NCBI RefSeq assembly: GCF_000018105.1
Contig: NC_009925.1
Location: 4,050,001 to 4,082,000 of the forward strand
Source of the DNA: Acaryochloris marina MBIC11017
GTDB lineage: Bacteria; Cyanobacteriota; Cyanobacteriia; Thermosynechococcales; Thermosynechococcaceae
Direction: 5' to 3'
Length of the DNA stretch: 32,000 nucleotides
Of the stretch, positions 318-15,773 are shown piece by piece. A program made the translations under genes and the position numbers. Numbering within the stretch: the first letter of the stretch is position 1; the number at the start of each line of letters is the position of its first letter. The notes beneath the pieces were generated by a model. That model saw only the letters and a list, made by a program, of their open reading frames with translations, was not told the DNA's origin and searched no databases.

Positions 318-416
318 CCATTGGACAGGCTCTGTTTGTACCTGTCAATTAGAGGATCTGGCCGTTATCCAGATAGGAGAAAACACGGCACAACTTTGAC
401 TAATGATGGCGATCAG

Positions 417-490
417 GGCGGACGATGGGAATCGAACCCACGAATGGTGGAACCACAATCCACTGCCTTAACCACTTGGCTACGCCCGCC
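417..490 (-). tRNA. tRNA-His (anticodon GTG)
   Basis: Reverse complement of 417-490 is GGCGGGCGTAGCCAAGTGGTTAAGGCAGTGGATTGTGGTTCCACCATTCGTGGGTTCGATTCCCATCGTCCGCC (74 nt). It folds as a cloverleaf: acceptor stem with an encoded extra 5' G (G-1, the His hallmark) opposite C73, anticodon stem GTGGA/TCCAC around loop TTGTGGT, and T-arm GTGGG-TTCGATT-CCCAT. No CCA is encoded. Confidence 0.9.
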
Positions 491-1127: not shown

Positions 1128-1206
1128 GGAAAAAATTAAAGAAACTGGGTTATATATCTAGCTTTCTGATAAAGACTAGCTCAATAAATACAAGAGGAAT
1201 AGATTG

Positions 1207-1464
1207 ATGATTATCTCTGATTTGAATTACTGTGAAGCTGTTACTGAAGGTCTTGACAAAGTTGCTGGCGGGAGTTTCAGCAAAAAAGTTCACTTAAAAT
1301 TCGTAGTCATTAAAACTTTTGGTAAGCCTGTAGGTAACATCGCTAAAGCTGGTGCAACTGCAGATGCTATTGGTCCAGGCTCTTTTAGTGAGGCCACTAC
1401 TACTACTACTACTGTTGCTGGGTATGGCTCTTCATCCGCTGCTAGCTCAACTTCTGTTTCCTAG
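1207..1464 (+). CDS. double-glycine-leader secreted peptide precursor (bacteriocin-like, cyanobacterial ISDLNY..E..GG type)
   Basis: ATG at 1207 is preceded by aagagga (1192-1198). The N-terminus is MIISDLNYCEAVTEGLDKVAGG|SFSKK. Hydrophobic residues sit at -4 (V), -7 (L), -12 (A) and -15 (Y) relative to the GG, as in double-glycine leaders cut by C39 peptidase ABC exporters. The core is Ala/Ser/Thr-rich (AKAGATADAIGPGSFSEATTTTTTVAGYGSSSAASSTSVS). A C39 exporter is encoded in the same island. Confidence 0.65.
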   Translation: MIISDLNYCEAVTEGLDKVAGGSFSKKVHLKFVVIKTFGKPVGNIAKAGATADAIGPGSFSEATTTTTTVAGYGSSSAASSTSVS

Positions 1465-1851: not shown

Positions 1852-2109
1852 ATGATTAAATCTATGCAATTGCAAGAAATGTTAGAGAGCATGAGTAACA
1901 GCTCTAGTATTTCTTCCTCAACAGCTGAGTCAAAAAGCAATGGTGTTGTTAGCCGTGCGTCTGCTAAAGCCACTTCATTTAAAGCAGGAAGTAAGCCTAG
2001 TTGCTCAGAATCGTTTAGTGAAAAAAATTCTCAATCTAGTTGTGCTAGTGCGTCTTCAACAACAAAAATCTCTGAAATTAATGTCCAAACAGATACTTTG
2101 TGCTCATAG
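1852..2109 (+). CDS. Ser/Thr/Cys-rich small protein, possible divergent paralog of the 1207-1464 precursor
   Basis: 85-aa ORF in the same orientation, 390 nt downstream of the precursor. It shares AKA...SFSE followed by a Ser-rich tail (SSCASASSTT versus SSSAASSTS). It has no GG motif and no clear ribosome-binding site, so it may not be expressed. Confidence 0.35.
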   Translation: MIKSMQLQEMLESMSNSSSISSSTAESKSNGVVSRASAKATSFKAGSKPSCSESFSEKNSQSSCASASSTTKISEINVQTDTLCS

Positions 2110-2691: not shown

Positions 2692-4026
2692 ATGCGAAGA
2701 CTTAACTTAAGCAGAATTAGATTTACCAATCGTGCAGATAGAGTTGACCCTGGAGTCACGATTTTTAACCCTAAAAATTCCTTTGTTAAAACCCTAAGAG
2801 GACGTGACTCCTTGATAGGGACTTCTTCTCTAAATGGTGATTTTGGCTTTGGTGTTTTGGTTGGGGTAGGAGCGCAAGATTTTGGCTCGCTTGCTTCATC
2901 GACTGAGTTTGAGGCTAACTTTAGGCTTCGAACTCAGGGAATTAATAACAAAGGTACGATTGAAACGAATAGCGGCCAGGATGTAATCAAAGGTACTGCT
3001 TCAGCAAATCTATCCGTTTCAACCAATACAGTAGCGGAAGCAATAGCCGTTGCTAAATTTGTTGATACAAGCGTCATCACTCAAGTCCTAGCATCTTTGG
3101 GGGTTGAGGCGAGTGTTATCGGTATCAATAATTCGAAGGCAACTATTAAGACGGGCCTTGGAAGCGATGCCGTTGCTGGCCAAACTGAGGGCAGCATTTC
3201 TGCTACAGCAACAGCCTCTGTAGATGCATCAGCCATTGTCGAAGCGATTGCTGGTGCCCCTATTTCTGATGAGTTAATCGCATTTGCGAATGCCATTGCT
3301 ACAAGTTTAACGGCTGCGTCTATCACGGCCACTGGGATTAAAAACAAGAAAGGACTGCTTTCTACTGGATCAGGTAGAGATAAGCTTACTGCTACTGCAA
3401 CTACGCAATCTGGCACTTTTGCCGGTACGTCTAGTTCTACTTTTTCTAGTGCACCCCCTGAGAATCAAGCATTGGCTTTAGCCGTGGCGGAGGCGGTTGC
3501 GGTGGCTTCTGATATTGCGATCGCAATCGATAATACAGGCGGCAAAATTACCACAGGGAATGGGGCTGATACGATAATTGCCACTGCGGAAGCGACTGGT
3601 AAAGCCTTTGGAATTATCAATACTGGTGGTGTGATTAATACTGGACAAGGGGCTGATCAGATTATTGTTCAGGCTACAGGGGAAGAAGCCTATGGTCTTT
3701 ATGGTGGAAGAGTAAATTTGGGTGCAGGAAAAGATTTATTAACCGGTACCTTTGGTGGCGGTGTGGTTGTCAATGCAGGGAGAGGCAACGATTTTATTGA
3801 TGGTAGTGCTGGTGATTTTGGGAACGCCACATTAAGAGGTGGAAGAGGTCAAGACACCCTCAGTCTTGCGAGTAGCCTTGCAGATTTTTCAGATATCAGT
3901 ATTGGTGCAAATACTCAAGTTACATTCAATCTTGACGGTATGACGCTTGTTACTACGGGATTTGAAGAATTTATTTTAGCGGGTGAAACTTATACTCTCG
4001 CTGGGCTTGCAAGCAATCTGCCATAA
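2692..4026 (+). CDS. repeat protein with RTX-like GxGxDx(I/L) motifs (putative secreted calcium-binding-type protein)
   Basis: 444 aa with about nine copies of a unit such as GINNKGTIETNSGQDVIKGTA, IDNTGGKITTGNGADTIIATA, IINTGGVINTGQGADQIIVQA, LGAGKDLLTG, AGRGNDFIDG and GGRGQDTLSL. These are separated by alternating-Ala segments (AEAIAVAKF, ALALAVAEAVAVASDIAIAI). There is no signal peptide and no GG leader. A ~49-aa non-repeat C-terminal tail follows. An in-frame TGA at 2680-2682 rules out a longer N-terminus. Confidence 0.75.
   Translation: MRRLNLSRIRFTNRADRVDPGVTIFNPKNSFVKTLRGRDSLIGTSSLNGDFGFGVLVGVGAQDFGSLASSTEFEANFRLRTQGINNKGTIETNSGQDVIKGTASANLSVSTNTVAEAIAVAKFVDTSVITQVLASLGVEASVIGINNSKATIKTGLGSDAVAGQTEGSISATATASVDASAIVEAIAGAPISDELIAFANAIATSLTAASITATGIKNKKGLLSTGSGRDKLTATATTQSGTFAGTSSSTFSSAPPENQALALAVAEAVAVASDIAIAIDNTGGKITTGNGADTIIATAEATGKAFGIINTGGVINTGQGADQIIVQATGEEAYGLYGGRVNLGAGKDLLTGTFGGGVVVNAGRGNDFIDGSAGDFGNATLRGGRGQDTLSLASSLADFSDISIGANTQVTFNLDGMTLVTTGFEEFILAGETYTLAGLASNLP
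3517..3524. repeat. HIP1 palindrome GCGATCGC (the only one inside the AT-rich island)
   Basis: Exact octamer read directly. Confidence 0.95.
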
Positions 4027-4220
4027 TATTTCAAGCTAAATAGAGTAAGTGAGAACGCCAAAGATGTTGCTAGAAATGTCTTAGTCTCCTTAGCTCATAT
4101 TCTCCGCTAGAAATTTTTAATCTATTTTGGATAATCGGGTTTCAGCACAACTACCTATTCCTTTCAGATTGAAATAAGGCATAGCTTGTATTAATACTAG
4201 TGAAAACTTAGTCGTAGAAT

Positions 4221-4255
4221 ATCCAAGGGTGCTATTAACAATGGCACCCTTGGAT
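4221..4255. other. perfect 12-bp inverted repeat (hairpin) in the spacer after the repeat-protein gene
   Basis: ATCCAAGGGTGC (4221-4232), an 11-nt loop, then GCACCCTTGGAT (4244-4255). No T-tract follows, so the terminator role is uncertain. Confidence 0.3.
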
Positions 4256-4575
4256 CTAGTGTTGGGATTTGATGAATAACGCTTTCCAAGAATCTTGTTT
4301 AATAAAACAATAAGTTGTTCGCTTGATATAGATTTCGTAGACCGTTTACTGAATATAGTTTTCAGGGGACGATGCTTTCAGTAATTCTGAGAGAACTATC
4401 TTCAAATTTTTTAGCTTAAGCAAACTGATATTAGGTTAGATCAGTACATGGTATGTCCGTGAGCGATTAAGCCTTACGCATGTTTTATAGCTATGGAATA
4501 ATGGCTTTAGAGAAGATATATACAAGTATTTAGCAAAAAAATCAGAAAAATTTTCTATTTGAAATTTCCTACTGA

Positions 4576-5325
4576 ATGATGACTATAGACTTTCGCGGAA
4601 TTCCAATTGAGATAGCTGAGATGCTAGAAGCACTCAAGCAAAATATGAGTCTAGTAGAGGTCTGCGAGCAAATTCTTAAACAAAAAATTATTCTTCAAAC
4701 AGCTGATTCTCAAAATATTACGGTTACACCTGAAGAAATTCAAAATGAAGTAGATGAAATTCGCCGTAATAAGCATTTGGAGAAGGCATCTGATACGATG
4801 GCTTGGCTCAATGAGCAAATGATTACCCCAGATGAATGGGAAATTGTAATTCAGAATCATGTGCTTACCAAAAAATTGGCTAAACATCTATTTGAAGAGC
4901 AAGTAGAACCTTTTTTCGCTGAAAGACGGTTAAATTTTGATCGTTTTGTGGTCTATCAAATTAGTCTTGACTGCCAAAATCTTGCTCAAGAGCTATTTTA
5001 TCAAATTGAAGAAGAAGAAATTAGTTTTTACGAAGCTGCACGACTTTATAACCTTGATGAGAGCGCTCGCTATTTGTGTGGTTATACCGGTCAGAAAAAC
5101 CGTTTAAGTTTTTCCCCCGATATCGCTGCGGCTATCTTTCAAGATCCCTTGCCAATAGGGATTCTAATAGGCCCACTTCAGACAGAAGATGTGTATCATC
5201 TTTTAAGAATTGAGGAACATATTCCTGTAGAGTTAACGCCTGAGTTGAGGCAAGAAATACTTCATAGTTTGTTTGATGAATGGATCAATAAAGAAATTGA
5301 GTACGTTATTAATATGAAAGGATAA
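4576..5325 (+). CDS. parvulin (PpiC)-type peptidyl-prolyl isomerase-like protein, leaderless
   Basis: 249 aa. The N-terminal half resembles the SurA/PrsA-type helical chaperone region (ITVTPEEIQNEVDEIRRN...). The C-terminal half follows the parvulin layout (FVVYQISLDCQNLAQELFYQIEEEEISFYEAARLYNLDESARYLCGYTGQKNRLSFSPDIAAAIF...PIGILIGPLQTEDVYHLLRIEE). The usual first catalytic His position appears substituted. No signal peptide was seen. Confidence 0.55.
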   Translation: MMTIDFRGIPIEIAEMLEALKQNMSLVEVCEQILKQKIILQTADSQNITVTPEEIQNEVDEIRRNKHLEKASDTMAWLNEQMITPDEWEIVIQNHVLTKKLAKHLFEEQVEPFFAERRLNFDRFVVYQISLDCQNLAQELFYQIEEEEISFYEAARLYNLDESARYLCGYTGQKNRLSFSPDIAAAIFQDPLPIGILIGPLQTEDVYHLLRIEEHIPVELTPELRQEILHSLFDEWINKEIEYVINMKG

Positions 5326-5364
5326 AAATTCTGTTAGATATATCAGTTCATCTTTTTAATTCTC

Positions 5365-8300
5365 TTACAGCTCTAGTTGTTGCTGAGCTAAGTAAAAATA
5401 GAGCCCTTGCTTTTTGATTAGCTCTTCGTGAGTGCCTTTCTCAACGAGTATTCCTTTATCTAGCACAATGATGCAGTCAGCATTGCGTACAGTTGAAAGT
5501 CGGTGGGCAATAATAAAAGTTGTCCGTTCTCGCGTTAAATGCTTTAAATTTTCCTGAAATCTTCGTTCTGATTCAGTGTCCAGGGAACTGGTAGCCTCAT
5601 CAAAGATGAGTATGGGGGGCCTTTCAAGTAAGGCCCTGGCAATGGCAATCCTCTGTCTTTGCCCCCCGGAAAGATTAGTACCCCACTCACCGACTTTGGT
5701 GCTGTACCCGAGTGGAAAAGATTGAATAAAAGCATGCGCTTCTGCCAGCTTAGCAGTTTCAATAACCTGCTCTAGACTAATCTTCGGTTGATGGAGCGTG
5801 ATATTTTCTTGGATTGTTCCTGAAAATAAAAAGCATTCTTGTTGAACAACTCCAAGTTGGGAACGGAGTGATTGAAGCGATAAATGATTAAGATCGTGTC
5901 CATCTATCGAAATTTGGCCACTGGTAGGCTGGTAAAGCCCTTGAAGTAACTTGACTAAAGTACTTTTGCCAGAGCCACTACGCCCAACTATTGCTAGAGT
6001 TTGACCTTTGTTAACCTCAAAAGAGATATTTTGGATAGCATTTCGCTCTTCTTCTGACTCATAGCGGAAGGTGACATTCTCGAATCGAATATTACCCTCA
6101 ATATTGGGTAAATTAACAGAAGACTTTTGAGATGCTTCCTCTGGTTGATAATCAAAAATATCATTGAGTCTTTCGACAGATATTAAGACTTCTTGTAATT
6201 CGTCCCATAATCCGACTAAAGCAATAATAGGACTGATAACATTGCCTTTCATCATATTAAAAGCAACATATTGACCAACCGTGAGTTGATCTTGAATAAC
6301 TAAAGTTGCTCCAAACCAAAGTAGAGCAGTTCCGCCAATAGTGTTAATTAGGCTACTCAATATACCTAGATTAATAGCAAGTTTTTGCCCTTTAAATTGT
6401 ATATTGAGTTGATGAGTTAATTTATCTTCCCAACGCCACCGGAACTCTTGTTCTACAGCAACAGATTTAACAGTAGAAATACCGGAGAGCATTTCTACTA
6501 AAGTTGAGTTCTCATCGGCAGTAGCATTAAACTGCTCTCGAGATACTTTGCGAAGCAAAGGAGTTGAAACTAATGTCAGTATGATGATTGGGGGAATAAT
6601 TGCTAATACTAATAATGTAAGTTGCCAGTTATAGTACAGCATCAAGCATAAATAAATGATCCCCGTCACTACATCTAGCCAGGCTAGTAATACCTGTCCT
6701 ATTAAAAATTGCTGAATCTTTTCATTCTCTTGAACTCTTGTGATGATATCTCCGACTCTGCGTGATTCAAAAAATTTGATAGGTAAATTGAGAGTATGTC
6801 GGATTAAACCGCTAATCATTGTCAAATCTAATCGATTAGCGAAATAGTTTAAGAGATATGTGCGAACTGCACTTAGCCCCATACCTGCGATGCCGAATAG
6901 CAAAGCACCGATGATCATCACATTGAGAGTTGTTTGGCTCTTACTAACGACTATTTGGTCAAGAATTATTTGAGTAAATAGCGGTGAAATAATGCCAAAA
7001 ATTTGAATTAAGATAGACGCTAAGATGATTTGCAGTCCTAAAGAGCGATACGGTAAAAGTAGATTGAAAAATCTACCTAAAGAGCGCTTTTCACCAGGAA
7101 CTGCATATAATTGTTCAGTTGGGTCTAGAAGAAGCGCAAAACCAGTCCAGCTCGCTAAAAATTTTCGGCGTGATATTTGGTATTTACCTTTTGCTGGGTC
7201 AGCAACTAAAACCTTGTCTCCTTTAACCCAGTAAACAACAATAAAGTGGTCTCCTTCCCAATGTGCAATCCACGGATTAGCTTCATCGGCTAAACGATTT
7301 AAACTGGCTCGTACAGGTCGGGCATGGTAACCAAGAGATTCTGCGGTACCCGCTAAATTTTTAAGTGAAGTACCTGAACGCCATACACCGGTTATTTCTC
7401 GTAACCAACTGAGACTAAACCGTTTGCCCCAGTACTGACTAATCATGGCCAGACAAGCAACCCCACAGTCAGACGAACTTTGCTGCTCGATAAATGGATA
7501 TGTGTTCCATAGAGTGCGACGAGGTTTTAGCGGTTTAGGGAAATCAATCTGTTGTGGATGCTCTATGTTCTGCGAAATGGAAGATGGATTGGACTGACCC
7601 TTTCTAACTCTCTGAGGGGTAGACCGAACCAAATTTCGCTTCCAGGATTTAGTGCGTTCGGTGTTGTAAATTCTACGAGGGTTAGCATTTAGTGCTGTGG
7701 TGGGTGATGGACGGCCTTCTTGCACTAGCAAGGACAATTGAGGCGCAATGGTGGTGGCAGCCTCCCAATTTTCTTTTGGTAATTGGTATATCAATAATTC
7801 AGTTTTGCTAGAGTTACTGACCTCAGTCGTGTCAGGATACCCCCAAGTAAATCCAGGGTGAGATTCTTGATCCTGAATCTGACCTTGCAGTAGCCAAAAA
7901 CGACCCAAGTCAGCGGGCGCTAATTCAGTAACAGGTGTACCAGGGAGGATTTTCTTCTCTACGATATATACACAAAATTTTTCTAACTTATGGGTTGGCA
8001 GTCTATTTAAGCTTGTAAGGGTTTTAAAGAAAATTAGACATTGACGATCTTGAATAGTTGTAGCCAAATGACCTTGTAGACTTGGTAACTGTGCTAAAAA
8101 AGGTTGCAGTACCTTAAAAGAAATCTTTGCAATCTGTGCTTCACTCGCAGCGAATGCTTGGTAAGGTAGACTGGCCTCACGGTAATTTGAGTCACCTCCA
8201 AAAAAAACACCCTCTTCCAATAATTGAATGGATAAATTTTGAGCTTTTTCGGAGACAGCACTTACAAGCCTAATTTTCCCCTGAGTTATCAGATATAAAT

Positions 8301-8517
8301 CTTGGTAATTATCCTTTATTTGAGTAGTGAATTCATCGATGTCGTAAACAGCATCTCCAAGTTGTAGATCAAGTATCTCAAATTGAGCACTTAGTTCACT
8401 GATAACAGTATCTGAGTGCGATATGTTACATATTTTAGATAATAGACTGGGAAGCTTAGATAGTTCTACTGGAATTTGAAAAGGGTGGTTGTTATCTGAA
8501 ATTCTTAAATTATCCAT
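5365..8517 (-). CDS. peptidase C39 domain-containing ABC exporter with N-terminal cNMP-binding-like extension (HetC-like)
   Basis: 1050 aa. Residues ~1-330 carry two degenerate cyclic-nucleotide-binding-like segments (LGDAVYDIDE...LYLITQGKIRLV...EEGVFFGGDS; ILPGTPVTEL...RFWLLQGQIQ). The C39 motifs are intact: QQSSSDC351GVACLAMI, H424FIVVY and D440P (codons checked at 7465-7467 and 7246-7248). A six-helix ABC membrane domain follows. The nucleotide-binding domain has Walker A GRSGSGKST, signature LSGGQRQRIAIARAL, Walker B ILIFDEATSSLD and H-loop IIAHRLS. Confidence 0.9.
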   Translation of the reverse strand: MDNLRISDNNHPFQIPVELSKLPSLLSKICNISHSDTVISELSAQFEILDLQLGDAVYDIDEFTTQIKDNYQDLYLITQGKIRLVSAVSEKAQNLSIQLLEEGVFFGGDSNYREASLPYQAFAASEAQIAKISFKVLQPFLAQLPSLQGHLATTIQDRQCLIFFKTLTSLNRLPTHKLEKFCVYIVEKKILPGTPVTELAPADLGRFWLLQGQIQDQESHPGFTWGYPDTTEVSNSSKTELLIYQLPKENWEAATTIAPQLSLLVQEGRPSPTTALNANPRRIYNTERTKSWKRNLVRSTPQRVRKGQSNPSSISQNIEHPQQIDFPKPLKPRRTLWNTYPFIEQQSSSDCGVACLAMISQYWGKRFSLSWLREITGVWRSGTSLKNLAGTAESLGYHARPVRASLNRLADEANPWIAHWEGDHFIVVYWVKGDKVLVADPAKGKYQISRRKFLASWTGFALLLDPTEQLYAVPGEKRSLGRFFNLLLPYRSLGLQIILASILIQIFGIISPLFTQIILDQIVVSKSQTTLNVMIIGALLFGIAGMGLSAVRTYLLNYFANRLDLTMISGLIRHTLNLPIKFFESRRVGDIITRVQENEKIQQFLIGQVLLAWLDVVTGIIYLCLMLYYNWQLTLLVLAIIPPIIILTLVSTPLLRKVSREQFNATADENSTLVEMLSGISTVKSVAVEQEFRWRWEDKLTHQLNIQFKGQKLAINLGILSSLINTIGGTALLWFGATLVIQDQLTVGQYVAFNMMKGNVISPIIALVGLWDELQEVLISVERLNDIFDYQPEEASQKSSVNLPNIEGNIRFENVTFRYESEEERNAIQNISFEVNKGQTLAIVGRSGSGKSTLVKLLQGLYQPTSGQISIDGHDLNHLSLQSLRSQLGVVQQECFLFSGTIQENITLHQPKISLEQVIETAKLAEAHAFIQSFPLGYSTKVGEWGTNLSGGQRQRIAIARALLERPPILIFDEATSSLDTESERRFQENLKHLTRERTTFIIAHRLSTVRNADCIIVLDKGILVEKGTHEELIKKQGLYFYLAQQQLEL

Positions 8518-8551
8518 CTGAATTTAGATTCGTGTTATTCAGTTTTTTGTG

Positions 8552-8971
8552 CTAAAGGTTTGGATTACTGCTCTTTTTATTCCACATAGAAAGATAGTTT
8601 TTGGCTAGCCAGTTATTGCTTGTGCCACCTGTTACCTGAGTCGATTTTTCTCGAACCTCTTCTAGGTATTCGAGATCTTGCATGTATCTGGGTGAGTTTG
8701 ACGGGGTTATAAGTGAATTGGGTTCAAAGTCTTTACAGCTCGCTTTGTCTTTAGATGTTTGATAACTCAGTAGGCTTTCTTTTTTGATTAATCTGTTGTA
8801 GGTGCGATAAGGAATATAGTGAAGTGGGTTATATCCCAGAAAACGCAGCATTAAGACGCAAGCCCAAGAATATTTCCCCATTAGTATGGCTTCAATCACT
8901 TGATTGAATTGTTCGTAGGTGATTTGTTTATCAAAATCAGTCCCAGAGTGAGTAGATAAGTTATGATTCAT
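8552..8971 (-). CDS. HetP-family protein
   Basis: The N-terminal block [45 protein letters not shown] matches, from my memory of the family, the conserved HetP N-terminal domain including its Cys (Cys38 here). The C-terminal ~60 aa are not conserved-looking. The gene ends 34 nt upstream of the HetC-like exporter start. Confidence 0.7.
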
Positions 8972-9348
8972 TCTATTAATCCAATTTTTTGATAAAGCGA
9001 TGCTGTAATTAAAGCTGTATGATGCTATGCGTACTTATTCGTAGATAAGTAGTTTAATTTATGGTGCATTTTGATGGGTTATGAGCCTATTTGTTTTGCT
9101 TCTAATTTTTAAAAAGTTTATTGTTTTATATTGATGCTTTTTATGAAAAATTGAACTTGAAATAAAATAAAAACCTTTTAGCATGATTTTTTGCTTTCTC
9201 TTGATATTATTTCCTGTGATCTGTAGATGGATATTTGAATTTTATAAATTAGGATGAAAACCACTCGAAGACTGTTCAGTAGCCGGAGATGACTGAAAGA
9301 AGATGATGTATTCTATTCATTGATTAAGAGATGAGAATTCAAGCAATG

Positions 9349-10902
9349 TTATTTTTTCGTATTGCCACTCTTCAGTTGCTTGATTGGATCTAATAAAACA
9401 TCGATAATACGACGCTGACGGATAACAATATTAGCTGTTGCCGATTGGCCAGGTCTAAATTTAATTCTCTTGTTATTATCTACGATGTGATGACGCTCTA
9501 ATTCAACTTCAACTTGGTAAACATTTCCTAGCTTCGGATCATATTTTGAGTCTGATGAAATTGAAGATACCTTACCTGGTACTACCCCATAATCTTGATA
9601 TGAATAGGCATCAAATTTGACTTTCGCTGGCTGATCCTTTTTTATAAAGCCTGCTTCCTTATTGGGTAAAACTGCAGAAATTATTAAAGGAGTGTTGTGA
9701 GGTGCAATTTCAGCTACAGTTTGCCCTGAATTGACTACCTTACCTTCATTCTTTAAATTAAATGATAAAACAACACCATCAATAGGTGCTTTAAAGAGCT
9801 TTTGGTCTAGAGTCGCTTTGGCTTTGAGCATCTGATTCTTGGTTTCAGATACTTTAGTTTTTGCCTGGGTGGTTTCTAGTTTAAGCTGGTCAATTTTTTG
9901 GTATGCTTCTAGCTTTAGTCGAGTTCTTTCCGCTTTATTCCGATTTAACTCTGCCTTTAGTTGTTCAACTTGTCGATAAGCAGAATAGAGCTCTCCTTGA
10001 TCTTGTGTCATTTTTGCAGCAAGAGTTCGCATCGATTGCTCATTTTGAAAGATTTGCTGGCTGACACTAGTAATGTCTTGTAATTTACTTTCTGTGATCT
10101 GACTCTGAACTTGACTAAGATTTTGATTGGCCTGGAAGACTAACTCGCTAGAGATAGCACCTTGCTTTTTCAAAGACTTTAATTTTTTCACACGACCTTG
10201 ATTGGATTTGAGGTCTAGCTCTAATTGCTTTACTCGGGATCTTGATAAGTTTGACAAGAGTTTTAAGCGTTTATGCCTGGCATTGTAAGCATTAAGCTCT
10301 TGCTTTTGTTGTATTAGCAACTGAAGTAGAGTATCTGCCCTATCTTCAGCTGATTTTATGGCAGACTCTTGACCCAAATTCTCTGAGGTAGAAATTCGTT
10401 GATGAGTTTGAGCTTCTAAGTAAACTTTATTGAGTAGAGATTGTTTTTGCTTTAGCTCTTGTTGGTAGCTAGACAGCATTTGTTCTAATCGCTTGACTTC
10501 TTTTTTATCTAAAGAAGTATCTAGTTCAGCAATGACTTGTCCAGCCGCAACAGTTTCTCCTTCTTTAACCGCAATTCTGCTGACCTTCCCGATAGCAACA
10601 GATTCAACCTTATATGTCTCACCTTTTGGGACTAGCTTTCCTTTTGCCGTCCCTATATCTTCTATTTTTCCTAGCCAAGCCCAGCCGAGAAAAGCAAGTA
10701 AGAATACTAATCCGCTCGAAATAATTCGGAGAGGCATCTCTGCCGGAGGCTGATCTAGGAGTGATTGTAATGATGCAGACCAATCAATAATGTCATTGTT
10801 TTTATATACAAAATTTTGTATTTTAGGCTGATTTAAGCTTGATCTTTGATCGTTTTTTTTGCCTAATTCTTGATCAGAAATAGTCAAAACCTTTGCCCCC
10901 AA
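9349..10902 (-). CDS. HlyD-family periplasmic adaptor (membrane fusion protein) of a type I / bacteriocin export system
   Basis: It has a single N-terminal TM (LRIISSGLVFLLAFLGWAWLG), a lipoyl-like hairpin (GKVSRIAVKEGETVAAGQVIAELD), a ~230-aa coiled-coil, and a beta-barrel C-terminal part (PIDGVVLSFNLKNEGKVVNSGQTVAEI). The start is uncertain because the ORF opens with TTG at 10902 and no ATG lies upstream of the TM. Confidence 0.85.
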   Translation of the reverse strand: MGAKVLTISDQELGKKNDQRSSLNQPKIQNFVYKNNDIIDWSASLQSLLDQPPAEMPLRIISSGLVFLLAFLGWAWLGKIEDIGTAKGKLVPKGETYKVESVAIGKVSRIAVKEGETVAAGQVIAELDTSLDKKEVKRLEQMLSSYQQELKQKQSLLNKVYLEAQTHQRISTSENLGQESAIKSAEDRADTLLQLLIQQKQELNAYNARHKRLKLLSNLSRSRVKQLELDLKSNQGRVKKLKSLKKQGAISSELVFQANQNLSQVQSQITESKLQDITSVSQQIFQNEQSMRTLAAKMTQDQGELYSAYRQVEQLKAELNRNKAERTRLKLEAYQKIDQLKLETTQAKTKVSETKNQMLKAKATLDQKLFKAPIDGVVLSFNLKNEGKVVNSGQTVAEIAPHNTPLIISAVLPNKEAGFIKKDQPAKVKFDAYSYQDYGVVPGKVSSISSDSKYDPKLGNVYQVEVELERHHIVDNNKRIKFRPGQSATANIVIRQRRIIDVLLDPIKQLKSGNTKK

Positions 10903-12637
10903 AACCTTTTTGTAAAAAATATTCTACTTTATCGCAGATTATTGGTCAAAACATTTTTATTTTAGACAGAAAATGATTTAGATGCATCAAAAATTTAATA
11001 TTTTCTTATTTTTTGAGTGGATTTCTTTTCAAACAAAGATATTTTCATATACAAAAAACTTCTAATGAATCTGATGTGATTAGATTGAGAAGTTCGAGAT
11101 TAAGAATAGCCCTAAAATGATTCCCTTTGTTGGTTAGGGATACGTGATTACCAATAAAGGCAACCTTTTACTAGGCTTGATACTTTTGCCATCAGAGGAT
11201 GAAATGTTATTATCCACCCTTGGATATAAATAATTAGGCAGCACTATTTGACAATCCCTATAGTTTTCTGGAAAAGCCTTGGAAAACTTATAAGCACTGT
11301 CAATTCACACGTTGAATTCGATATCTCTATATTATTTAGAGCTAATGCATGTTGTAGTACCTAACTAGATGACTTAGAACAATATCCTCTAGATGCTTCA
11401 ATCAATCTTATTCACATATTCCATGGCTATACACCATTCCTATATGTCTAGAAAAGGTGGCCCTAGCCATTTATCTTTAGTTCTGAACACTTCCATCTCT
11501 CTTCACTATTTTTGTGAAAAGCTGAACAAATAGTTCTTTGGCCGTTGGCTTGGGGAATTTATTCGAATGTAGTAGACGTAGAAAATCTATAAGTTTAAGA
11601 ATAGTCTAATGTAGAAAATTCTTGGTTCATATATCAAACAAACTAAAAAAACATTCTATCTAGATTGCTTGTGAACTTATAGATTAACCATATTTCGACT
11701 AGATTGGATTGATTTTTTGGCGTTGGTAAACACATTTTGAATTTACCTTTTGTTTGAGCAATTGAATAGTTTTTCTTTACAAAAGTTATCTAGGTTATTT
11801 TATGTTTTATTGATGTCATATATTTTTTTATGACTTTAAATGACAGGTAGTTATTATTCTTTTTTTAACGTATATTGAAAAATATTTATACCTTTTGTAT
11901 CGTAAAATAAGAATTTTGTAAAATGAAATTGATGAAGCCTGGCAACTTCTTGACTACTCAGCGCTTAGATTCTATAGGTGACAGTAGTTTTAGGAGATTA
12001 AAAAAAATTGTATGAGGTAATAGTTTAAAGCTAAAGCCATTATTTTAAGAGGATTATTTTATCGAAGCCCATACTGATTTAAATCAAATGCTTCATAAAG
12101 AAGAGTGCAAATAACGTAATGTTCAACCTCAAAAAGGAATAAAAGGATATAGGCTGATTCGTTGTATCAGATTAGCTAAACTGTTGATTTTGCCATGAGA
12201 TTATAATTTTATCGATAAATAATTCTCAATGGTAACTCTTGTGAAGACTATATAAATTAAGCTAGGTGTATTGATAACTATGGATGATGCGTTTACTTCA
12301 TGCAGCCATGATAAATAGACGCTTGGCGGTAGATTGATCATTTATCTAATTATTGATTAAGGCTCTCTTAGACAGGCTTCAACTGAAGAGAGCATTTTAA
12401 TATCAGTAATATTGGATGCTTGAACTAAAGAAAGGGTAGATTCAATATATATTTAACTCTTACTGATACTAGTCTTGATTTTAGTAGTAAAAACTATCTC
12501 TATTATTTATGCCCACTTAAGGCCAATAATTCAGTAGATAACTTAAAATATTGCTTGGCTCTGTTGGCTATAAACTTTATTCGCTTGATGCTTGCTTCAG
12601 TAAATAAATCTGGATAATGGAATTATGTAATCCTGTC

Positions 12638-13414
12638 TCAGTTTGCTTTTTGAGTATTATAACCTCTGGTTAAAAAATGAGTTAAGACTAGTAAGAATGA
12701 ATTTTTTTTCTCCCAGGGAACACGATGCCCAGCATTTAAAATAATGCGATGATTGATTGATAAACAATGACGATCTAGCTTTTGGCCAATTTGGCAATAA
12801 TGCATGTCTTCTGACCCTGATATATACAAAATTGGTGCGTTGAGAGTTTGTAAATTTGGGAGGAGATTGCTTTGGTGTCCCTTGGAGAAGATCTGAAATA
12901 TCTGTGAGAGTTTAATGCGAGAAAAATCTTTTTCTAAGACTGAATAGGTAGGCTGGCGTCCACAGAATACGGAGAGTGAATTCCACTCCTGCATCAGGTT
13001 TTCCCACTTATCATGCAGAAATTTGTTGCTCCAAGCTTTATCTCTTTGGAGACAGCGGTTGCGATCGCACTCTGATTCCAACCCCGAGTCAGCACTGATA
13101 ATGATCGCTCCTTGCCATAATTCAGGTCGATGTAGCAGCGCATGAAAAGCTAACCGACCGCCCAAGGAATAACCCAGTAAGAAACGAGACTTAAAGTGAT
13201 GGGTGTGAACGCGTTGACAAAATAGAGCTGCCCATTCCTCTAAAGAGTCTCCTGGACTGGTCCATAGATCTTCCAAGAAAATGGATAGGTTGAGCTTGGG
13301 CCTGACCGCTTGATGAAGTTGCGTTGTGATGGGGTGCCATACTTTAGGGGTTTGGAGATTGCCATGAATCATCCATAACCCAACATCAGACGGCACAATA
13401 GATTTTGGTGACAT
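12638..13414 (-). CDS. alpha/beta-fold hydrolase (MenH-like, assignment tentative)
   Basis: Contains an HG oxyanion motif (WMIHGN), nucleophile elbow GYSLGG and a C-terminal catalytic His (NAGHRVPWE). Length 258 aa, core-type composition. Confidence 0.7.
   Translation of the reverse strand: MSPKSIVPSDVGLWMIHGNLQTPKVWHPITTQLHQAVRPKLNLSIFLEDLWTSPGDSLEEWAALFCQRVHTHHFKSRFLLGYSLGGRLAFHALLHRPELWQGAIIISADSGLESECDRNRCLQRDKAWSNKFLHDKWENLMQEWNSLSVFCGRQPTYSVLEKDFSRIKLSQIFQIFSKGHQSNLLPNLQTLNAPILYISGSEDMHYCQIGQKLDRHCLSINHRIILNAGHRVPWEKKNSFLLVLTHFLTRGYNTQKAN
13061..13068. repeat. HIP1 palindrome GCGATCGC
   Basis: Exact octamer read directly. Confidence 0.95.
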
Positions 13415-13487: not shown

Positions 13488-15773
13488 ATGCTCGATTCAA
13501 TGTCTACACTGCACCTGTTTGGAATTCGCCATCATGGACCTGGTTCAGCTCGGAGTTTGCGACAGAGCTTAGAAAACCTAGAGCCTGATTTGATTTTGGT
13601 AGAGGGGCCACCGGATGCGGCTGGCGTGATTGAGCAGGTCGTTAGCCCGGACATGAGTCCTCCTGTGGCTATTTTGATTTATGCACCGGAGCAACCTCAA
13701 CAGGCCGTTTATTATCCCTTTGCGGTTTTTTCACCCGAATGGCAGGCGTTAGATTATGGTTTCCAACACCAGGTCCCGGTGCAGTGGATGGACTTGCCCC
13801 AGACGCATCAACTGGCCTTGCGACAGCAGCTCGATCAACAGTATGAACCGCCTGAGGTAGAGGGCGATGCTGGGAATGTGTCTCCTGAATCGTCTCTACC
13901 CGAAATTCGGCAGGATCCGCTGTTTTGGTTAGCCCAAGCGGCTGGATTTAATGATAGTGAACGCTGGTGGGAGCGGATGGTAGAACAGAGATCTGAAACC
14001 ACCGATCTATTTCCTGCCATTGTAGAAGCGATGTCAGCACTGCGATTAGAGATGGAAAAGGATCATCCGCTAGATCTCAACAACAATCGGGATTATCGAG
14101 AAGCCTTACGAGAAGCCTACATGCGGCAAACCATCCGCAAAGCGAAGAAGGCAGGGTATGAAAAAATAGCGATTGTTTGTGGGGCTTGGCATACGCCTGC
14201 TTTAGTGGAACCTTTCCCGCCTGCTAAGCAGGATGCAGCTTTACTAAAAGGCTTACCTAAACTGAAAGTAACTTCAACCTGGATTCCCTGGACCTATGAG
14301 CGGCTGGCAGATCGCAGCGGCTATGGAGCAGGGATTGCTTCGCCGGGCTGGTATCACCACCTATGGACGGCATTGGATCAACCCACGGTTCGCTGGCTCA
14401 CCCATGTTGCCCGCTTGTTGCGGCAGGCGGATGTCGATGCCTCTTCGGCTAGTGTGATTGAAGCGGTGCGGCTGGCCAATTCCCTAGCTGCACTGCGAGA
14501 TTGTCCGACCCCCGGATTGTCTGAATTAAACGAAGCGGCCAAGACGGTCCTCTGCTTTGGGGAGGAACTGCCGTTGCAGCTGATTCATGAACGATTGATA
14601 ATTAGCGATCGCATGGGGCAAGTTCCAGACGATACGCCGATGGTGCCTTTGCAGGTGGATTTGCAGCGTTGGCAGAAGAAGCTGCGCCTTAAACCTTCGG
14701 TTACGCCCAAAGAGCTGTCTCTGGATTTGCGAAAGCCGAATGATTTGTTGCGATCGCAACTTTTGCATCGCCTCAATTTATTAGGGATTCCCTGGGGCCG
14801 CCCTACCTTTAGTCGAGGTAAAGGAACTTTTAAAGAAGCCTGGATATTGGAGTGGCAGCCTGAGTTTGAAATTGCCTTGATTGAAGCGGGTCAGTGGGGC
14901 AATACGATTGAGGCTGCCACGACCGCCTATACCTGTGATCTGGCGAATAATGCCGCAAATCTGCCGATACTAACCGAGCTATTGGATCAGGTTCTCTTGG
15001 CCGATCTCCCGGACGCGATTACCCAACTCATGGCTCGTTTGCAGGCAGAAGCAGCGGTTGCCAGTGATGTGGTGCATCTGATGTCGGCCTTACCGCCCTT
15101 GGCCCAAATCTTGCGGTATCGGGATGTGCGTCAAACGGATACAGAGGTTGTCGCCCATGTGGTGGATGGCCTAGTCACTCGCATCTGTATTGGCTTACCA
15201 GGGGCTTGCGCGTCTCTGGATGATGACGCGGCAGCCATGATGGATAAACAAATTATGGCGACCCATAGTGCCATTAATTTGTTGCAAAATCAGGACCATC
15301 AACAGATGTGGTGGATGGTGTTAAAACAACTGGTGAATCGAGAAAGTTTACATGGATTGCTGAGTGGTCGTTCCTGTCGGTTATTGCTGGATGGAGGACA
15401 GTTTGAACCATCAAGAGCGGCCCAACAGTTGAGTTTGGCGTTATCCCTAGCGACGGACCCGACCCAAGCTGCTGCCTGGATTGAAGGCTTCCTCAAGGGT
15501 AGTGGCCTGTTGTTACTCCACGATCAGGAGATTTGGCAGGTCCTGGATCAGTGGGTTTGCGAATTGGCACCAGATACCTTTGTGACGCTGTTACCGTTGT
15601 TGCGGCGGACCTTCTCAACTTTTCCGGTAGCAGAACGGCGGCAGATGGGCGAGCGAGTCACGCAAGGAGTTGTGGAGACTGGCTTACAGGGCTGGGACTC
15701 GGAGGTATTGGATTGCGATCTCGCTGAAACGGTTTTGCCACTTGTAGCAAAGCTCTTGGGGTTTTCGTTGTAA
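13488..15773 (+). CDS. large conserved hypothetical protein, DUF5682-like
   Basis: 761-aa ORF with clean coding composition. The N-terminus LHLFGIRHHGPGSARSLRQSLENLEPDLILVEGPPD resembles, from memory, the conserved start of DUF5682-family proteins. An alternative start exists at Met5 (13500). Confidence 0.6.
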   Translation: MLDSMSTLHLFGIRHHGPGSARSLRQSLENLEPDLILVEGPPDAAGVIEQVVSPDMSPPVAILIYAPEQPQQAVYYPFAVFSPEWQALDYGFQHQVPVQWMDLPQTHQLALRQQLDQQYEPPEVEGDAGNVSPESSLPEIRQDPLFWLAQAAGFNDSERWWERMVEQRSETTDLFPAIVEAMSALRLEMEKDHPLDLNNNRDYREALREAYMRQTIRKAKKAGYEKIAIVCGAWHTPALVEPFPPAKQDAALLKGLPKLKVTSTWIPWTYERLADRSGYGAGIASPGWYHHLWTALDQPTVRWLTHVARLLRQADVDASSASVIEAVRLANSLAALRDCPTPGLSELNEAAKTVLCFGEELPLQLIHERLIISDRMGQVPDDTPMVPLQVDLQRWQKKLRLKPSVTPKELSLDLRKPNDLLRSQLLHRLNLLGIPWGRPTFSRGKGTFKEAWILEWQPEFEIALIEAGQWGNTIEAATTAYTCDLANNAANLPILTELLDQVLLADLPDAITQLMARLQAEAAVASDVVHLMSALPPLAQILRYRDVRQTDTEVVAHVVDGLVTRICIGLPGACASLDDDAAAMMDKQIMATHSAINLLQNQDHQQMWWMVLKQLVNRESLHGLLSGRSCRLLLDGGQFEPSRAAQQLSLALSLATDPTQAAAWIEGFLKGSGLLLLHDQEIWQVLDQWVCELAPDTFVTLLPLLRRTFSTFPVAERRQMGERVTQGVVETGLQGWDSEVLDCDLAETVLPLVAKLLGFSL
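14605..14612. repeat. HIP1 palindrome GCGATCGC
   Basis: Exact octamer read directly. Confidence 0.95.
14750..14757. repeat. HIP1 palindrome GCGATCGC
   Basis: Exact octamer read directly. Confidence 0.95.

Follow-up and report, generated by a model that had tools for sequence, protein, structure and literature searches.

We have analysed a stretch of 32,000 nucleotides (nt) of the Acaryochloris marina MBIC11017 genome (contig NC_009925.1, positions 4,050,001 to 4,082,000), the whole of which is called the window below. Our subject is a hetP-family gene in this window, AM1_4010, which lies next to the gene of a peptidase-containing ATP-binding cassette (ABC) exporter (PCAT). The main finding is that the HetP protein holds an internal motif which, judged by its residues, is of the same kind and spacing as the N-terminal double-glycine (GG) leader of the cargo peptide encoded in the cluster. 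Besides this match, the C39 peptidase domain of the exporter keeps its catalytic residues, the two genes are syntenic across cyanobacteria, and the integrity of the GG in HetP co-varies with the presence of hetC. Combining these observations with the published facts on HetC and HetP, we consider it about an even chance (probability roughly 0.5) that the neighbouring exporter recognises HetP with its C39 peptidase domain, and probably also cuts it.

The hetP gene and the neighbouring exporter

The features on which the argument leans are as follows.

8552..8971, minus strand: hetP-family gene AM1_4010, 139 amino acids (aa), ATG start (list of open reading frames, ORFs; NF037966 match).
5365..8517, minus strand: HetC-orthologous PCAT, 1050 aa (Pfam Peptidase_C39, ABC_membrane and ABC_tran; neighbour-joining tree).
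7114..7500, minus strand: C39 peptidase domain of the exporter, residues 340-468 (PF03412, E=9.5e-39; catalytic motifs present).
8092..8316, minus strand: N-terminal domain of the exporter resembling cyclic nucleotide monophosphate (cNMP)-binding domains, residues 68-142 (PF00027, 21.6 bits, below the cutoff of 27.5).
9349..10902, minus strand: HlyD-type membrane-fusion adaptor, 517 aa (TIGR01843, 225.7 bits, cutoff 208.65; HlyD_3, E=1.7e-22).
1204..1464, plus strand, probable start ATG at 1207: cargo precursor with the N-terminal double-glycine leader MIISDLNYCEAVTEGLDKVAGG (sequence; leader family).

A preliminary description of the window had proposed that the ORF at 8552..8971 encodes a HetP-type N-domain, that the gene is wedged between an adaptor and a HetC-like exporter, 34 nt upstream of the latter, and that the locus carries peptide cargo. 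All of this agrees with what we have found. In a hidden Markov model (HMM) search, the protein scores 116 bits (E=4e-34) against the NCBIfam model NF037966, 'HetP family heterocyst commitment protein', for which the cutoff is 45, and its residues 8-64 cover the profile positions 6-62 of 63. It also keeps all the 24 columns that are invariant in 121 HetP sequences, in a core that includes GKYSWAC. A scan with a Pfam-A copy evidently lacking PF28069 gave no match for this ORF; PF28069 (HetP) is the precomputed annotation of AM1_4010 and of 120/120 homologs among the matches listed. Among these matches the closest named homolog comes from Acaryochloris sp. CCMEE 5410 (94% identity), and identity to the Nostocales orthologs is ~46-51%. 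The ORF has the same coordinates and sequence as AM1_4010 in CP000828 (4058552-4058971; Table S3 and Fig S1 of PMC3140520). Its host is a single-celled organism without heterocysts.

On the minus strand, hetP follows the stop of hlyD by 377 nt and precedes the start codon of the exporter gene by the 34 nt already mentioned. No terminator-like site was seen between hetP and the exporter gene in a promoter and terminator scan of 4000-12700, a scan that as a whole stays at background (33 promoter-like sites vs 27.8 expected, and 4 terminator-like sites vs 5.2 expected).

We have built a neighbour-joining tree of 58 exporters, rooted at the midpoint. It splits exactly in two, with 27 PCATs from upstream of hetP, a Xenococcus exporter and the window exporter on one side, and on the other 29 'second' PCATs (PCAT2), which are the copies found further downstream in Nostocales. 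Because the window exporter groups with the PCATs upstream of hetP, apart from the second paralog, we assign it as the HetC ortholog. Its domains are those of a HetC-type PCAT as well, that is, a cNMP-like domain (with a match below threshold), a C39 domain, and the ABC transmembrane and nucleotide-binding domains. In the exporter orthologs of three other loci (L086, L088 and L090), the cNMP-binding domain is called without reservation. The residues Q345, C351, H424 and D440 of the window exporter are all intact, and so are its Walker A, signature and Walker B motifs.

Two conserved blocks in HetP

Alignments of 23 and of 121 HetP-family members were used to measure conservation, taken as the mean majority-residue frequency. 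They divide the protein into the parts below.

8780..8929, minus strand: HetP core domain, residues 15-64, three helices (frequency 0.88 in 121 sequences; AlphaFold2 model).
8624..8686, minus strand: internal double-glycine leader-like motif, residues 96-116 (second conserved block; match to the cargo leader).
8555..8623, minus strand: tail after the GG, residues 117-139 (frequency 0.33).

The linker between the first two parts (residues 65-95) is variable, with a frequency of 0.38, and the value rises to 0.66 in the motif (alignment of 121). HetP is therefore made of two conserved blocks split by a variable linker, and not of one block. The preliminary description had regarded the 60-aa C-terminal tail as unrelated to the conserved domain. 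This is wrong in that the second block sits there, at residues 96-116, and matches the cargo leader. Within this block, D99 (0.96), L100 (0.94), Y102 (0.98), L103 (0.94), E104 (0.97) and G115 (0.98) are nearly invariant, and G116 reaches 0.84. In the poorly conserved tail, W121 (0.82) and L122 (0.75) are the exceptions.

The DLxYLE core occurs in 185/192 unique HetP sequences. Actually, in 175 of these 185 a GG, GS or GA dipeptide follows exactly ten residues past the core (GG in 150, GS in 23, GA in 2). The tail behind the dipeptide ranges from 1 to 43 aa across the 185 proteins, and is no longer than 10 aa in 23 of them.

In the AlphaFold2 model, made with the alignment of 121 sequences, HetP has helices at residues 19-30, 34-44 and 55-76, and the predicted local distance difference test (pLDDT) is 87-94 for the block at residues 21-60. 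For residues 75-113, which take in the linker and the motif, the pLDDT is mostly <50. This predicted disorder is what would be expected for a leader. The fold of the N-domain has given no functional lead, since a Foldseek search of the model against PDB returned nothing significant (best E=2.9).

Not all HetP proteins carry the second block. In three loci we have found HetP paralogs of 117-131 aa which keep the N-domain and are without DLxYLE-GG (L052, 18887-19240; L059, 19242-19637; L080, 18905-19261; all on the minus strand). They sit past a second PCAT-HlyD-PpiC cluster downstream of hetP. Since the paralogs past the second exporter cluster are without the motif and AM1_4010 has it, we assign AM1_4010 as a HetP-family member orthologous to the hetC-linked HetP of the Alr2818 type; it combines the DLxYLE-x10-GG block with an adjoining HetC-clade PCAT.

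The HetP motif and the cargo leader

The cargo leader aligns without gaps to residues 96-117 of HetP. The identical residues are D, L, Y, E, V, E, V, G and G, and the spacing of ten residues from DLxYxE to GG is the same. We have scanned all 419 ORFs of the window with the cargo leader, which makes 13,891 ungapped positions. The HetP motif came first, scoring 41 with BLOSUM62, and the runner-up reached 25. None of 300 shuffled cargo leaders came up to 41 (mean 23.1, standard deviation 3.8).

We have further built an HMM from the HetP motifs alone and run it on ~20,350 ORFs from 80 related loci and the window. The 11 best non-HetP matches are all N-terminal leaders of ORFs of 70-128 aa, lying on the same strand just 3' of hetP. 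Their weak E-values (0.017-0.84) are due to the shortness of the motif and to a spacer that is shorter in most cargo leaders. This search and the ungapped scan of the window are the non-circular tests of the motif. A profile-profile comparison (hhalign) of HetP motifs with cargo leaders gave a probability of 94% with GG placed on GG, but it is partly circular, as both input sets were chosen by related regular expressions, and we take it as supportive only.

The leader of the window cargo belongs to the leader family of the cargo arrays that lie beside hetP in other loci. Scans of the cargo peptides against NCBIfam, at E up to 10, found no family. A second Acaryochloris lineage (L085), with a HetP of 76% identity, shares 22/22 positions of the cargo leader, and its cargo core has diverged. 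The HetP motif differs there at 2/21 positions, and the tail is mostly different.

How far HetP agrees with known double-glycine substrates can be judged from the residues upstream of the GG. The published rule calls for hydrophobic residues at -4, -7 and -12, with a consensus of Leu-12 x3 Glu-8 Leu-7, and the dipeptide at which a PCAT cleaves may be GG, GS or GA (PMC6363468). AM1_4010 has G115-G116 at this place, and its gene stands directly beside a catalytically competent C39 PCAT. In the HetP register, V stands at -4 (I in most members), S or K at -7, V at -11 and E or V at -12. The register of the window cargo leader has V-4 and L-7.

Conservation of the cluster in cyanobacteria

A pattern scan with one genome per species yielded >571 HetP-encoding stretches, and the synteny was counted in the best 80 loci. 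In this sample, which holds the loci most similar to the query, over-represents hetC-linked orthologs and Nostocales, and thus gives frequencies for itself rather than for the family, a HetC-like exporter lies on the same strand within the fetched flanks in 67/80 loci, and within 2.5 kb upstream in 50. A PpiC/SurA-like rotamase homolog is within the flanks in 48/80. A full-length HlyD gene ends 45-186 nt before hetP in 8 of the 80 loci; the named taxa among them (Xenococcus, Kastovskya and Leptolyngbyaceae) are all non-heterocystous, and the others are metagenome-assembled genomes (MAGs).

Thirteen sources contain canonical cargo ORFs (M-I-I-S-D-L-N-Y-L-E...GG), which often form arrays immediately 3' of hetP. 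In seven loci hetP heads such an array directly after hlyD (L047, L049, L051, L067, L088, L090 and L091). We have also looked up the gene context for the window protein, the second Acaryochloris lineage, Pleurocapsa PCC 7319, a Kastovskya-like genome and three further lineages. In 7/7 of these look-ups the HetP gene adjoins a HetC-type exporter, and all seven contain a HlyD gene (split in two ORFs in L085) together with a rotamase-type gene. Small ORFs follow in these clusters, and most of those inspected have a GG leader. The gene order of the locus L092 is that of the window, hlyD-hetP-hetC.

Overall, the linkage of hetP and hetC is conserved and old, and the module of non-heterocystous lineages comprises hetC and hetP, a full hlyD, a rotamase gene and the cargo arrays. 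The survey therefore bears out the preliminary description in its idea of a conserved, ancestral linkage of hetP to the exporter; we have seen neither a lack of HetP profile score nor a confinement of the linkage to a few genomes without precursor genes.

Several further observations were made around hetP and hlyD. Many heterocystous taxa (Stigonema, Fischerella, Chlorogloeopsis, Scytonema and others) have intact 'mini-HlyD' ORFs of 212-337 aa between hetC and hetP, for instance at L008 9114-9917, L010 8996-9928 and L040 9053-9937, and in ~25 more loci. Many of them keep the N- and C-terminal barrel parts of HlyD, and the central coiled-coil hairpin (~250 aa) is gone. HlyD_3 scores 35.6-50.2 bits on the three ORFs named (cutoff 22.2), and a fourth one tested, L001 8857-9858, gave no Pfam match. 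These ORFs suggest a series from full HlyD through truncated HlyD to loss. In L085, hlyD is present as the two ORFs 8130-9128 and 9283-9669 and may be a pseudogene. In the Acaryochloris strain AP026075 (L083, 5441-6496), an insertion sequence with a DDE_3 transposase lies upstream of hlyD, and the window has none there.

At the other end of hetP, Nostocales have a conserved small ORF of 40-74 aa (M[ND]SI..SID....LIE.L..CHA...) that begins at or overlaps the hetP stop and has no GG leader. Relative to this stop, it starts at +7 in L001 (10457-), L013, L022 and L043, and at -13 in L012, L036, L041, L046, L066, L075 and L076. It may be the patC gene (asr2819) of PCC 7120.

Integrity of the double glycine and presence of hetC

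For the loci among L001-L080 that have enough upstream sequence, we have compared the dipeptide of HetP with the presence of hetC, judged within ~10 kb. Strict GG at the fixed position is found in 53/55 HetPs that adjoin an intact HetC-type exporter, the exceptions being one GS and one spacer shifted by one residue. This proportion drops to 7/21 for HetPs without an adjoining exporter, where the others show GS (6), GA (2), SG (2), AN (1) or a motif that is lost or truncated (3). Fisher's exact test, a statistic ignoring phylogeny, gives p=1.6e-8. The degenerate cases are spread over at least five lineages, namely the Anabaena/Trichormus group, the Brasilonema/Scytonema group, Mastigocoleus, Aulosira and a Nostocaceae MAG. 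This pattern suggests that the integrity of GG tracks the presence of hetC.

Proposed recognition of HetP by the exporter

Based on the above analyses, the following mechanism can be proposed. The C39 domain of the adjoining HetC-type exporter would bind the HetP motif DLEYLE-x10-GG (residues 99-116) with the same code that it uses for cargo leaders, and would cut after G116. The regulatory N-domain (~50 aa, three helices) would then be freed from a short dispensable tail. HetP would be a substrate or a substrate mimic of the exporter, and in this way the activity of the exporter would be linked with the state of a small DNA-binding regulator in the cytoplasm. The exporter itself may be gated by its cNMP-like N-domain, which would bind guanosine tetraphosphate (ppGpp).

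The published knowledge on the Anabaena proteins gives this mechanism its background. HetC of Anabaena is a PCAT whose C39 residues C347 and H420 and whose ATPase glutamate are essential for differentiation, and its N-terminal domain, the equivalent of the cNMP-like one, binds ppGpp in vitro (PMC10986499). HetP, described as of unknown mechanism in the preliminary description, is by now reported to be a nonspecific DNA-binding protein that opens the target sites of sigma-HetZ and enhances sigma-HetZ-dependent transcription (PMC13342950), so that the older statement is outdated. Like the part of HetP in heterocyst commitment, this activity is known for Anabaena only. Fusions of HetC and HetP to green fluorescent protein (GFP) both concentrate near the heterocyst poles, HetP-GFP being present in soluble and membrane fractions, and an extra copy of hetP restores the heterocyst frequency in a mutant of the hetC peptidase domain (PMC4133259). 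The polar co-localisation and this rescue agree with an action of HetC on HetP or by way of it.

On the other hand, several points weigh against recognition and cleavage of HetP by the exporter. The literature searched yielded no experiment that demonstrates cleavage and export of HetP. The localisation of HetP fused to superfolder GFP is unchanged in the hetC peptidase-domain mutant (PMC4133259), and hence docking to C39 cannot be the sole determinant of the localisation. The motif is not the N-terminal leader of a short precursor, but is placed at residues 96-116 past a folded domain and a linker. Because of this, and because the hydrophobic register is only partly kept, HetP would resemble the double-glycine substrates in its working but is not a typical member of them. 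Furthermore, GS and GA, common where hetC is missing, remain cleavable dipeptides; the correlation of GG with hetC takes no account of phylogeny, and hetC may sit elsewhere in the genomes scored as being without it.

The same synteny and motif evidence would also serve if HetP were an uncleaved regulator or gatekeeper, with the motif acting as a pseudo-substrate in C39 or as a tether, so that HetP senses or throttles export or is held away from DNA at the membrane. The polar residues at -7 and -12 could mean a poor substrate which is still a ligand, the tail past the GG can shrink to 1-8 aa and then leaves little to export, and HetP-GFP is found both soluble and in membranes, at the poles where HetC sits. 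However, a nearly invariant G115 and a GG/GS/GA dipeptide at fixed distance fit a scissile site better than a docking helix, the C39 catalytic residues are intact here and essential in Anabaena, and the polar localisation persisted without the peptidase domain. We regard this explanation as unlikely. It sharpens the suggestion of the preliminary description that HetP may sense or regulate export, a suggestion less supported than its converse, an exporter that would recognise HetP through a leader-type signal. HetP has also been counted among bacteriocin precursors (PMC3140520), and it could be a long-leader precursor of the NHLP or Nif11 kind whose C-terminal peptide is exported as a bacteriocin or signal, as in Wang et al. 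2011. Its place at the head of cargo arrays in the seven loci listed above, and the conservation of W121 and L122 behind the GG, speak for such a role. It would, however, make the least conserved part of the protein the product, a part that can be as short as one residue; conservation is highest in the N-domain, whose role in Anabaena is DNA-related and lies in the cytoplasm, and the paralogs without the motif retain the N-domain alone. This makes an exported product quite improbable, in our judgement.

The linkage might finally be historical only, with the motif being a relic of a fusion with a cargo gene or serving another partner (an M16 peptidase, or the interactions between HetP paralogs), and HetP working independently of the exporter. 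Wang et al. did ascribe the motif to an M16 peptidase (PMC3140520), an extra hetP copy bypasses the hetC peptidase-domain mutant (PMC4133259), and several lineages retain hetP without an adjoining hetC. Yet the residues D99, L100, Y102, L103, E104 and G115 stand at 94-98% in more than 120 sequences from unicellular to heterocystous organisms, and a relic would not decay preferentially where hetC has been lost. No M16 peptidase gene was seen in the cluster of the window either. We hold this explanation, too, to have rather little probability.

If recognition and cleavage of HetP by the exporter are extended to heterocyst development, HetP would be the physiological substrate of HetC, and the cut at GG would free or activate the DNA-binding N-domain as the switch of heterocyst commitment, gated by the nucleotide-binding N-domain of HetC, with the Acaryochloris locus as the ancestral form. 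This extension is possible, but we consider it doubtful. Were it true, an ancestral export machine would report its own activity to the chromosome through the leader code of its cargo.

Relation to previous work

Much of what concerns the gene itself has been published. Wang, Fewer and Sivonen in 2011 counted AM1_4010, in a cluster of the bacteriocin type, as a 'HetP precursor' (Table S3 and Fig S1A of PMC3140520), the figure aligning its sequence with alr2818. They reported that HetP-like proteins often adjoin cyanobacterial bacteriocin clusters with PCAT, HlyD and SurA and 'may serve as precursors', gave the motif as KIxDLxYLEx10GG, and found that one Acaryochloris exporter of group I clusters with group II (PMC3140520). 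The gene, its family, its clustering with an exporter and the motif are thus already known for AM1_4010 itself. As far as the literature searched shows, what has not been stated before is that the motif matches the genuine cargo leaders of the same clusters, that GG integrity tracks the presence of hetC, that HetP paralogs without the motif exist, and that loci of the ancestral type hold the 'missing' HlyD and cargo genes.

The question of the HetC substrate has been open since hetC was described. A 2024 study still gave the substrate as unknown, and noted that with no double-glycine-leader gene near hetC, genomics gives no pointer to it (PMC10986499). Our results suggest that a candidate lies in plain sight in the gene next door, as the leader that genuine cargo has in clusters of the ancestral type recurs inside HetP. 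They also offer an evolutionary account in which heterocyst development would have taken over a peptide-secretion module of unicellular cyanobacteria. What makes the locus valuable above all is that the substrate question becomes readily testable.

Other genes of the window

Two further features belong to the module or to its surroundings.

4576..5325, plus strand: PpiC/SurA-like rotamase, a conserved member of the module (Rotamase, E=4.9e-5; TIGR04500 peptide-maturation relative, E=4e-16, below cutoff).
1852..2109, plus strand: second small Ser-rich peptide, 85 aa, starting with MIKSMQLQEML (gene call; conserved in L083 and L085).

The peptide at 1852..2109 has no recognisable GG leader and no family match, and it may be a degenerate cargo paralog. 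At 2692..4026 on the plus strand, a repeat protein of 444 aa, rich in Gly, Ala and Thr and with GxGxD-like repeats near its C-terminus, has no match in Pfam or NCBIfam. It is conserved in Acaryochloris, in L085 with a split into two ORFs, and the cluster may secrete it as a further product. The cluster edge is marked by a tRNA-His (GTG) at 416..489 on the minus strand, ~0.7 kb from the cargo gene, and past it lies the 5' end of a citrate synthase gene, as judged from L083. On the other side are the genes of an alpha/beta hydrolase (258 aa, 12638..13414, minus strand) and a DUF5682 protein (761 aa, 13488..15773, plus strand). Both adjoin the cluster in all the Acaryochloris contigs seen, and are probably unrelated to the export module.

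Comparison with known systems

The closest known system is that of Anabaena/Nostoc sp. PCC 7120, where HetP (Alr2818) is encoded beside hetC (alr2817). The two HetP proteins match the same family model and have the same two blocks; the N-domain and the KIKDLAYLEVVGKQ..E.HGG motif of Alr2818 are aligned with AM1_4010 in Fig S1 of PMC3140520. Like its counterpart, AM1_4010 adjoins a PCAT of the HetC clade with cNMP-like, C39 and ABC domains. Unlike PCC 7120, the Acaryochloris locus has the order hlyD-hetP-hetC instead of hetC-hetP, and belongs to a unicellular host without heterocysts. Moreover, PCC 7120 is reported to have neither a membrane-fusion gene nor a GG-leader gene near hetC, whereas the locus of the window has a full-length HlyD and a canonical cargo gene.

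AM1_4010 is also like the 'HetP precursors' of the group I and II bacteriocin clusters, among which it was itself included (PMC3140520). That work differs from ours in treating HetP as the bacteriocin precursor, and in not listing the cargo at 1204..1464 (one AM1_40xx entry only). The motif was neither compared with cargo leaders nor related to the presence of hetC there.

The long-leader precursors of the NHLP and Nif11 types (PMC3140520) share with HetP a folded, or formerly independent, domain in front of a GG site for processing by a PCAT (a putative site in HetP), and a clustering with PCAT and HlyD genes. HetP differs from them in that its N-terminal domain is the conserved and biologically active part, while the peptide behind the GG is short, variable and at times nearly absent. 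With the leaders recognised by C39 domains in the ComA/ComC, LahT150/ProcA and PCAT1 systems, HetP has in common the GG/GS/GA dipeptide, a hydrophobic -4, a predicted disordered stretch upstream, and the genetic linkage to a PCAT with a catalytically intact C39 domain. It departs from the canonical double-glycine leaders by its polar -7 and -12, by the conserved DLxYLE at -18 to -13, and by the internal position of the motif.

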